From: Escherichia coli
GTDB lineage: Bacteria; Pseudomonadota; Gammaproteobacteria; Enterobacterales; Enterobacteriaceae
DNA length: 64,000 bases
NCBI RefSeq assembly: GCF_017348835.2
Contig: NZ_CP071375.1
Strand: one strand, 5' to 3'
Shown here: in pieces, positions 12,001 to 15,000 of the stretch
How the letters are laid out: every line of letters starts with the position of its first letter
How positions within the stretch are numbered: the first letter of the stretch is position 1
Program-made: the position numbers

Positions 12001-15000
12001 TGGAGATAAATGCACCGGCAGCATAATAAAAAAAGAGCCAGCGACTGACCTGAAAGAAGACGCTGGCTAAAAGGCCTTATATGTTTGTAGAGACTTATTT
12101 TTCACAGACAGCAATGATGCCTGTCAATATATTATCAATATGCGGATTGTTTCAGTTACAGATGCTTTATTAAGGAAAAAAACAGCCAGCACTGACTTTC
12201 GGTGGAGAGGTGCTGGCTCAGAAGGATAGTTGGATTTCACATGATACTTATGTCTGGCGGTATATTTTCTGACAGACAGTGACGGATGTTGTCAAGATAT
12301 TGTGTCATTTATAACCTGAACCAGGGGGGCCGGAATGTTATCTGGCATTTTTAGCAGAGCCTGAATGCCATAATCACGGCTCCCGGAGTTGGCCGTCAGT
12401 GGGTGACACTGGCGGCTTTTTGTTTTCCTTTACTTTCATTTTCTGTCGGCGGTGACGGAGACATACATCAGATGGAAAAAATCACAACAGGTGTGTCATA
12501 CACCACGTCAGCGGTAGGGACGGGATACTGGTTACTGCAACTGCTGGACAAAGTCTCTCCGTCCCAGTGGGTGGCAATAGGTGTACTGGGGAGTCTGCTG
12601 TTTGGCCTGCTGACGTATCTGACTAACCTGTATTTCAAAATCAGAGAGGACCGGCGTAAGGCGGTGCGGGGAGAGTAAAGTGATGAAGAAAAAATACGAA
12701 CTGGTTGTTAAAGGGATAAATAATTACCCGGATAAGATTACTGTTACTGTGGCACTGGAAATTGGTGGGTATCCGTCACTGTTGTTGCCAGATGTGGCGA
12801 TTAGTCTTGACCGTACTGAAGGTGCCACGCTGGAGTTTTACGAAGCTGAGGCGAAAAAGCAGGCGAAGCAGTTTTTCATGGATGTTGCTGCCGGGTTATG
12901 TGAAGGGGATGGTCCGTTGCCGGAAAAGCGGCCCATCATTTTAGAGGCGCAGGATGTGTTGATAACCTACAGAGGAAAACTACCGGGAATAATTACTGGT
13001 TCTCTGAAGACTCCACCGCTGGCCTGAAGACTTAACATATCCAGGGATTTGAAATCGATAAATCCTGATAAATATCCATGAACGCAAAAATCAGATACGG
13101 CCTGTCGGCTGCCGTTCTGGCGCTGATTGGTGCAGGGGCGTCTGCGCCTGAAATCCTCGACCAGTTTCTGGATGAAAAGGATGGTAACCACACCACAGCA
13201 TACCGTGATGGTACGGGTATCTGGACCATCTGCCGCGGTGCCATCCTGGTGGATGGTAAACCTGTCGTCCCGGGCATGAAGTTGTCGAAGGAAAAATGCG
13301 ACCAGGTTAACGCCATTGAGCGTGATAAGGCGCTGGCATGGGTGGAGAAAAACATCAAAGTGCCGCTGACCGAACCCCAGAAAGCGGGGATCGCGTCATT
13401 CTGTCCGTACAACATTGGTCCCGGTAAGTGTTTCCCGTCGACGTTTTACAGACGAATTAATGCAGGTGATCGCAGGGGAGCATGTGAGGCGATTCGCTGG
13501 TGGATTAAGGACGGTGGCAGAGACTGCCGTATTCGCTCAAACAACTGCTACGGTCAGGTCTCACGGCGTGACCAGGAGAGCGCGCTGGCGTGCTGGGGAA
13601 TTGACAGATAAGAAGAATATTTTGCTGAAAAATGAGGTTTGCTTACATGGACGGATAACACGAAATCCTGCAAATTGGCAAAATGTAAGTGAATAAAGTT
13701 AAAACAGTTGTTTAACACTCAGGCACCGTAATGATGCCTTTGTCATTTCTGCGCATCTCACGCGCATCTCACAACACAGAACCTTTCAGGATGACCCTTG
13801 AGGATACCGGTTTGGCTGTGCCTTTCTGTGGGCTGGATTCCTGTGAGACAAGGTTCATCACTAAAAGGAAATAACCGATGAATATGATGGCCGTGCCGTT
13901 TTATGTAGTTAACCATAATGGCGAACCATACGTTCCCATGAAACCTGTCGTTGCGGGGATGGGGCTGGCCTGGCAATCACAGTTGGCTAAGTTAAGACAG
14001 CGTTTTGCGTCAACTATAACGGAAATCGTTATGGTTGCTGAGGATGGGAAACAACGCAATATGGTGTCCATGCCACTTCGAAAACTTGCCGGCTGGCTAC
14101 AAACCATTAATCCCAACAAAGTAAAACCCGAAATCCGCGATAAGGTCATCCGGTATCAGGAAGAGTGCGACGATGTTCTTTACGAGTACTGGACGAAGGG
14201 TTTTGTCGTTAATCCCCGTAAAATGAGCGTGATGGAAGAACTCAACCAGGCTTGTGCTGACATGAAACGGGATAAAAACATTGCCAGTGTGTTTGCTACC
14301 GGGCTGAATGAGTGGAAACAGGTTAAAGCCGCGCATGTATCAAAAATCCGTACGCTGGTAAATGAAGCGAATATGCTGATTGATTTTGTCCTGGCTGATA
14401 CAGGCAAAGGGAAAATAACAAAGGCGGATTGATGGGGTGGCTAATGATATCAGATAAACTCATAACGCTGGTGAAGAGCCTCTGTGTACTTGTCGGCATT
14501 TCATTTTTAGTCATGCTGGTTGCCATTTTCTTTTCCACCGCCTGGCGAGTCCTGACGTTATCGGGACTGGTGGGGTGAAAGAGAGATGAACCGTGTTCTG
14601 TGTGTGGTGATTATTGTCCTGGCGGTTGGCTGTGGTGCGCTGTGGCTGGCAACAAACCATTACCGTGACAACGCGCTCACCTACAAAGCGCAGCGCGATA
14701 AAAAAGCCAGAGAGCTGGAACAGGCGAATGCCACCATTACTGACATGCAGGTGCGCCAGCGTGATGTTGCTGCGCTCGATGCAAAATACTCGAGGGAGTT
14801 AGCCGATGCGAGAGCTGAAAATGAAACTCTGCGTGCTGATGTTGCCGCTGGTCGTAAGCGCCTGCGGATCAACGCCACCTGCTCCGGTACCGTGCGTGAA
14901 GCCACCGGCACCTCCGGCGTGGATAATGCAACCGGCCCCCGACTGGCAGACACCGCTGAACGGGATTATTTCATCCTCAGAGAACGGTTGATGACAATGC

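Follow-up and report, generated by a model that had tools for sequence, protein, structure and literature searches.

Lysis region and endolysin gene

The window, that is, the whole stretch of 64,000 nucleotides analysed here from Escherichia coli contig NZ_CP071375.1, contains a lambdoid prophage that carries effector genes and is inserted between potC and potB, with the exception of its int/xis/repressor arm. The lysis cassette is located in the lambdoid late lysis region in the order of pinholin, YdfR-family gene, endolysin gene R, antirepressor gene (ant), and Rz/Rz1 (Table 1). Two tRNA genes were found downstream of the Q antiterminator gene, and such a pair is typical of Stx-type lambdoid phages. 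The antirepressor gene, together with a hydrophobic ORF of 48 aa, was inserted between R and Rz (13878-14578); the same insertion was observed in related prophages, e.g. that of strain 2014C-3011, and nothing is annotated there in the record of phage H-19B.

Table 1 Genes and other features of the prophage, with their positions in the window.
Feature	Position	Strand	Remarks
Q antiterminator	7787..8608	+	drives late (lysis) transcription; PF03589, E=4.7e-50
Phage tRNA, anticodon CAT	8752-8827		downstream of Q; Met by ARAGORN vs Ile (ileX-like) by PGAP
Phage tRNA Arg-TCT	8928-9004		downstream of Q
nanS-p-like sialate O-acetylesterase	10176-12026		616 aa, intact; DUF1737 + SASA + DUF6645
Class II (phage 21 S-type) pinholin	12472..12678	+	68 aa, intact; PF04971, E=1.6e-32; PGAP 'class II holin family protein' WP_000411811.1
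DUF1327/YdfR-family gene	12683..13027	+	between holin and endolysin; PF07041, E=4.7e-46; also called by PGAP
SAR endolysin gene R	13078..13611	+	177 aa, GH24/T4-lysozyme type; ORF list; RefSeq WP_153645541.1 'lysozyme'
SAR domain	13096..13149	+	residues about 7-24, YGLSAAVLALIGAGASAP, Gly/Ala/Ser-rich; from the translation, aligned with the SAR regions of R21 and RrrD
Codon 35, GAT (Asp)	13180..13182	+	replaces the catalytic general-acid Glu (GAA in relatives); changed base 13182, A to T
Codon 44, GAT (Asp)	13207..13209	+	second triad residue; invariant, 133/133 homologues covering the site
Codon 50, ACC (Thr)	13225..13227	+	third triad residue, conserved; homologues: Thr 132, Ser 2
P22 Ant-like antirepressor gene	13878..14432	+	between R and Rz; PF10547, PF10549
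Rz spanin gene	14586..15053	+	intact; PF03245, E=3.2e-50
Rz1 lipoprotein ORF	14806..14991		embedded in Rz; PF06085 Rz1 called at the equivalent place in locus L004
Portal gene	20775..22139		open
461-aa ORF	22136..23521		directly downstream of portal gene, ATGA overlap; open
Tape-measure gene	26508..29750		1,080 aa, intact
NleG-family gene	38291-38866
NleG-family gene	39151-39738
NleG-family gene	39806-40441
espW	40569-41626	-	split into two ORFs
NleG-family gene	41701-42351	-
IpaB/EvcA-family 'bfpT-regulated chaperone'	42534-43124

The product of R is a protein of known kind that is already present in RefSeq. Its local motif was K34-D35-G36-NHTTAYR-D44-GTGIW-T50, which exactly matched the triad alignment of the initial annotation, where Asp in place of the catalytic Glu had been pointed out at codon 35. 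Both the reading of the ORF and alignments to solved structures bore out this substitution: HMMER placed Asp35 on the catalytic Glu of R21 (3hde, 'dglEGvsy'), RrrD (4zpu), and LysF1 (7m5i). A shift in the alignment was also considered as the source of the mismatch and was ruled out, since each of three independent alignments by HMMER placed D35 on the Glu, with the same 35/44/50 spacing. The E-G given for homologues in the initial annotation was found as well, H-19B R reading DEKEGNHT at the site.

The protein matched Pfam PF00959 (Phage_lysozyme) over residues 35-167 with 84 bits (E=1.4e-23), the cut-off being 22.3 bits. Furthermore, an AlphaFold2 model (pLDDT 83.9, pTM 0.82) had the T4L-like two-lobed fold, and its top Foldseek matches in the PDB were 7m5i (LysF1), 3hde (R21), 4zpu (DLP12 endolysin), 2anv, and T4L entries, all with a probability of 1.00. 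All structurally characterised T4L-like endolysins have the signature Glu-X8-Asp/Cys-X5-Thr (PMC8228626; the motif is also given in PMC9239132), which is broken here to Asp35-X8-Asp44-X5-Thr50. Judged by homology, the protein is a family member in which the signature of the active enzyme is broken.

The N-terminus fits the Gly/Ala/Ser-rich criterion for a SAR domain (PMC9239132): 11 of the 16 residues from 8 to 23 (GLSAAVLALIGAGASA) were Gly, Ala or Ser. The gene is also accompanied by a class II pinholin of the phage 21 S type (PF04971), and release of the enzyme from the inner membrane by a pinholin or by PMF collapse is the definitive test of a SAR endolysin (PMC9239132). On these sequence features, the protein is an ordinary SAR endolysin of the H-19B/Stx-phage type apart from Asp35.

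Origin and distribution of the Asp35 allele

The nearest chromosomal allele, WP_000992168.1 of strain 2014C-3011, was one base apart, with T at 13182 in the window and A in that strain (GAT vs GAA), in agreement with the single-nucleotide origin suggested by the initial annotation. The endolysin gene was 100% identical to a copy in PE164 (NZ_CP114128.1), a pig isolate from Nanjing, whose corresponding prophage was 99.9% identical to the window. Three places similar to the endolysin gene were found in PE164, only one of which had GAT.

Codon 35 was surveyed in 5,426 complete E. coli genomes by megablast using a 55-nt query centred on base 13182; with this design, a match requires an exact 28-mer with the tested base, and diverged copies are missed equally for all four codons. 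The GAA (Glu) context was found at 5,585 places in 1,817 genomes, and the GAT (Asp) context at one place in one genome, namely that of PE164. Neither GAG (Glu) nor GAC (Asp) was found at any place in these genomes. Since the synonymous GAG was absent too, the uniformity of the Glu codon is partly due to recent common ancestry. In IMG/VR, a 23-nt pattern gave at least 120 matches in its GAR version and no match in its GAY version.

At the protein level, Glu was present at the site in 130 of the 133 close homologues; one entry was the query itself, two were truncated, and one had Gln (P0121), which came from a contig of 604 nt. Among 100 representatives of 50%-identity clusters covering the site, 97 had Glu, and the remaining three consisted of two frameshift-like translations (P0162 and P0241) and one gapped alignment. 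Even at identities as low as about 35%, the wider family still had Glu throughout. The initial annotation had left room for Asp being common at this position in active homologues; instead, Glu was near-invariant and no Asp was found among about 230 other homologues. The absence of Asp from homologues, IMG/VR, and the other E. coli genomes indicates that the family does not use Asp as a natural alternative to Glu.

At least five independent assemblies (GCA_032490275.1, GCA_033744155.1, GCA_009647465.1, GCA_032490375.1, and PE164) had the exact 177-aa protein, on about 11-12 contigs in all. Because the identical allele occurs in several independent assemblies, it was inherited and is not a sequencing error. 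Asp35 is thus a private, inherited allele of a small E. coli lineage. The 90% cluster of the endolysin itself has 5,273 members, and public data hold many thousands of distinct variants; with so many variants, a missense change of a catalytic residue is expected somewhere from mutation and drift in prophages.

Predicted effect on lysis and state of the prophage

The general acid of T4 lysozyme, Glu11, donates the proton to the glycosidic oxygen (PMC5606550). The side chain of Asp is one methylene shorter, and the carboxyl group of Asp35 would be out of reach of the scissile glycosidic oxygen, lowering the muramidase activity by orders of magnitude. Replacing the equivalent Glu by Ala inactivates the T4L-like domain of pesticin (PMC3390615), and E35D of human c-type lysozyme served as a 'totally inactive' control (PMC4383205). 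For g-type lysozyme, substitutions of Glu73 are reported to affect function in a passage that cites Kawamura 2006, and E73D/E73Q are present in decaying sirenian g-lysozyme genes (both PMC8449827). Loss of muramidase activity is likely, and the D35 enzyme is probably a severe hypomorph.

After induction, the pinholin would still be expected to collapse the membrane potential, kill the cell, and let the enzyme leave the membrane. The cell wall would then be poorly cut by the Asp35 enzyme, so that lysis and the release of virions would not take place or would come much later, unless co-induced prophages with intact endolysins lysed the cell instead.

The strongest alternative is that Asp35 is a tolerated conservative substitution and that lysis is near normal or slightly delayed, the endolysin being made in excess. 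Asp and Glu both carry a carboxylate, neither the fold nor the rest of the triad is disturbed, and the allele persists in isolates from several projects. The initial annotation had relied on Glu11 of T4 lysozyme tolerating essentially no substitution; the amber-suppressor survey behind that statement reportedly did not have Asp among the residues tried. No Glu-to-Asp measurement in any GH24 enzyme, T4 E11D included, was found in the literature outside the original T4 active-site mutagenesis papers, which also leaves room for tolerance. However, Asp was found in none of the homologues and in none of more than 5,500 close gene copies, the family is uniformly Glu even where it has diverged to about 35% identity, despite the part of this uniformity that comes from recent ancestry, and human lysozyme is inactivated by the same change at its general acid. 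We therefore regard tolerance as unlikely.

The remainder of the prophage was examined for lesions. ORFs for the terminase, the protease-capsid region, the portal, the tape measure, and J were open within the window; with the rest of the late region looking intact, the window gives no independent sign of earlier relaxed selection on phage functions. Two IS3 insertions were observed in the PE164 prophage, one of them in the tape-measure gene and the other in the early region. The tape-measure gene of the window did not have the former IS3-family element (27418-27421 vs 43240-44548 of locus L001), indicating that the window comes from a different isolate or assembly of the PE164 lineage. In addition, the nanS-p-like gene of PE164, which is flagged as frameshifted, had a 2-nt insertion at about 11176 and clustered SNPs, whereas the copy in the window was intact. 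The nanS-p frameshift and the tape-measure IS3 are specific to PE164 and represent further decay in this sister genome.

The pseudogene flags of PGAP in PE164 were also considered as evidence of decay and were rejected in part, several of them being effects of annotation or restricted to PE164. PGAP fuses the portal gene and the 461-aa ORF of PE164 as one 'frameshifted' pseudogene, although both are open in the window. The 461-aa ORF contains a 162-bp tandem repeat of 4.3 copies (22352-23052; 97% matches). At 690-2519, a single 609-aa ORF was found, which PGAP annotates as two separate features, a 'partial replisome organizer' and an IstB/DnaC-like ATPase. This arrangement of the replisome organizer (O-P) was identical in at least 158 genomes and is accordingly a shared feature, not a lineage-specific defect. 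In the host-specificity J gene (34477-34902), about 30 SNPs that distinguish the window from PE164 were densely clustered, and this patch looks like recombination between paralogous prophages.

The effector block (38291-43124) occupies the right-hand end of the prophage, directly ahead of potB, and was found in 178 complete E. coli genomes. Its espW is split by an indel at about 41100, where the window has 7 T and PE164 and every other top match have 8 T; either a real frameshift or an error in sequencing the homopolymer may account for the difference.

The initial annotation had read the endolysin lesion as fitting a domesticated prophage retained for its effector cargo, in which case loss of the endolysin would have been favoured because it locked in a prophage with T3SS effectors. 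The four NleG genes, espW, and the IpaB/EvcA-family chaperone on the prophage, and the additional lesions in the sister genome PE164, are in line with such selection. Nevertheless, this part of the initial annotation was not supported. Strains 88_1577 and 95_0274 share the replication region, the lysis region (with one mismatch, giving Glu35), and the equally spaced effector block with the window, so that the same cargo is kept elsewhere with an intact catalytic residue, and the Asp allele is limited to one small lineage. The late ORFs of the window listed above, from terminase to J, are also open. Since the pinholin is intact, loss of R does not save the induced cell, leaving the host with no obvious survival benefit. 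The integrase and excisionase of PE164 are annotated with no pseudogene flags, and the element is not locked in by Asp35. As for recurrent independent hits, which would be a sign of selection, the Asp codon occurred only once in the 5,426 genomes. Overall, selected domestication appears improbable.

Still less probable is that Asp35 makes the protein altered and not dead, either as a slow enzyme that retimes lysis or as a periplasmic protein that binds peptidoglycan without being lytic and is retained by the host. The latter is modelled on SpmX, whose phage-lysozyme-derived muramidase domain is a localisation module in Caulobacterales; the SpmX muramidase domain (6h9d) was among the Foldseek matches of the endolysin model. 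Finally, an artefact of sequencing or assembly has a negligible chance, since the change is a substitution and not a homopolymer indel and both protein and DNA are identical in the five or more assemblies, even though the differing espW homopolymer makes some base-level errors possible.

Taken together, we give a probability of roughly 70% to the account as a whole, namely that a sporadic, private Glu35-to-Asp mutation crippled the endolysin and was carried by drift as an early step of prophage decay. A single A-to-T transversion produced the change in one small lineage and would then have drifted to fixation in the clone, selection not being needed. A sporadic loss-of-function mutation, possibly an early decay step, is the most likely explanation, PE164 having since gained its IS3 insertions. 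Against this account, all lambdoid prophages of O157 Sakai, defective ones included, keep a full set of lysis genes (PMC2669165), which makes a lesion in a lysis gene somewhat less routine than one in a structural gene. On balance, Asp35 probably cripples lysis, and the decay of the prophage that it marks would be unremarkable.

Should the enzyme indeed be dead, the prophage would be unable to release its own virions, and the NleG/EspW cargo would spread less horizontally out of the pig-associated lineage, except where other prophages in the same cell bring about lysis. Such complementation between prophages of one host is documented for the 'defective prophage pool' of O157 Sakai (PMC2669165). 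The allele also offers a natural Glu-to-Asp variant for probing the side-chain length needed by a GH24 SAR endolysin, and it illustrates that a 'lysozyme' annotation, as given by PGAP to WP_153645541.1, can mask a catalytically compromised allele. The stakes are modest, and the understanding of lysis and prophage domestication is unchanged.

Comparison with known lysozymes

The human c-type E35D and g-type Glu73 variants represent the same chemical change at a functionally equivalent general acid. These enzymes belong to other GH families (22 and 23, respectively), and the c-type has a retaining mechanism, so that they serve as an analogy and not as a test. T4 lysozyme, an inverting muramidase with the triad Glu11/Asp20/Thr26, has PF00959 and the T4L-like fold in common with the endolysin of the window. 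In contrast, it is cytoplasmic, has no SAR domain, and is only about 14-16% identical.

Closer in organisation are the paradigm SAR endolysins, R21 of phage 21 (PDB 3HDE/3HDF) and RrrD of DLP12 (PDB 4ZPU), which have the same fold (Foldseek probability 1.00, TM about 0.7), the same 35/44/50 numbering of the triad, and a class II pinholin as the partner. They are only about 28-30% identical to the endolysin of the window and have Glu35 where the latter has Asp35.

The closest known system is R of H-19B (AAD17382.1), an inducible Stx1 phage, together with its equivalents in Stx phages. H-19B R likewise consists of 177 aa with a SAR domain and Asp44/Thr50, its gene is 99.1% identical in DNA, and a phage 21-type S holin gene is located upstream of R as in the window. 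H-19B R has Glu35 and Asp99, whereas the endolysin of the window has Asp35 and Glu99, and these two replacements, E35D and D99E, are the only residue differences between the two proteins.
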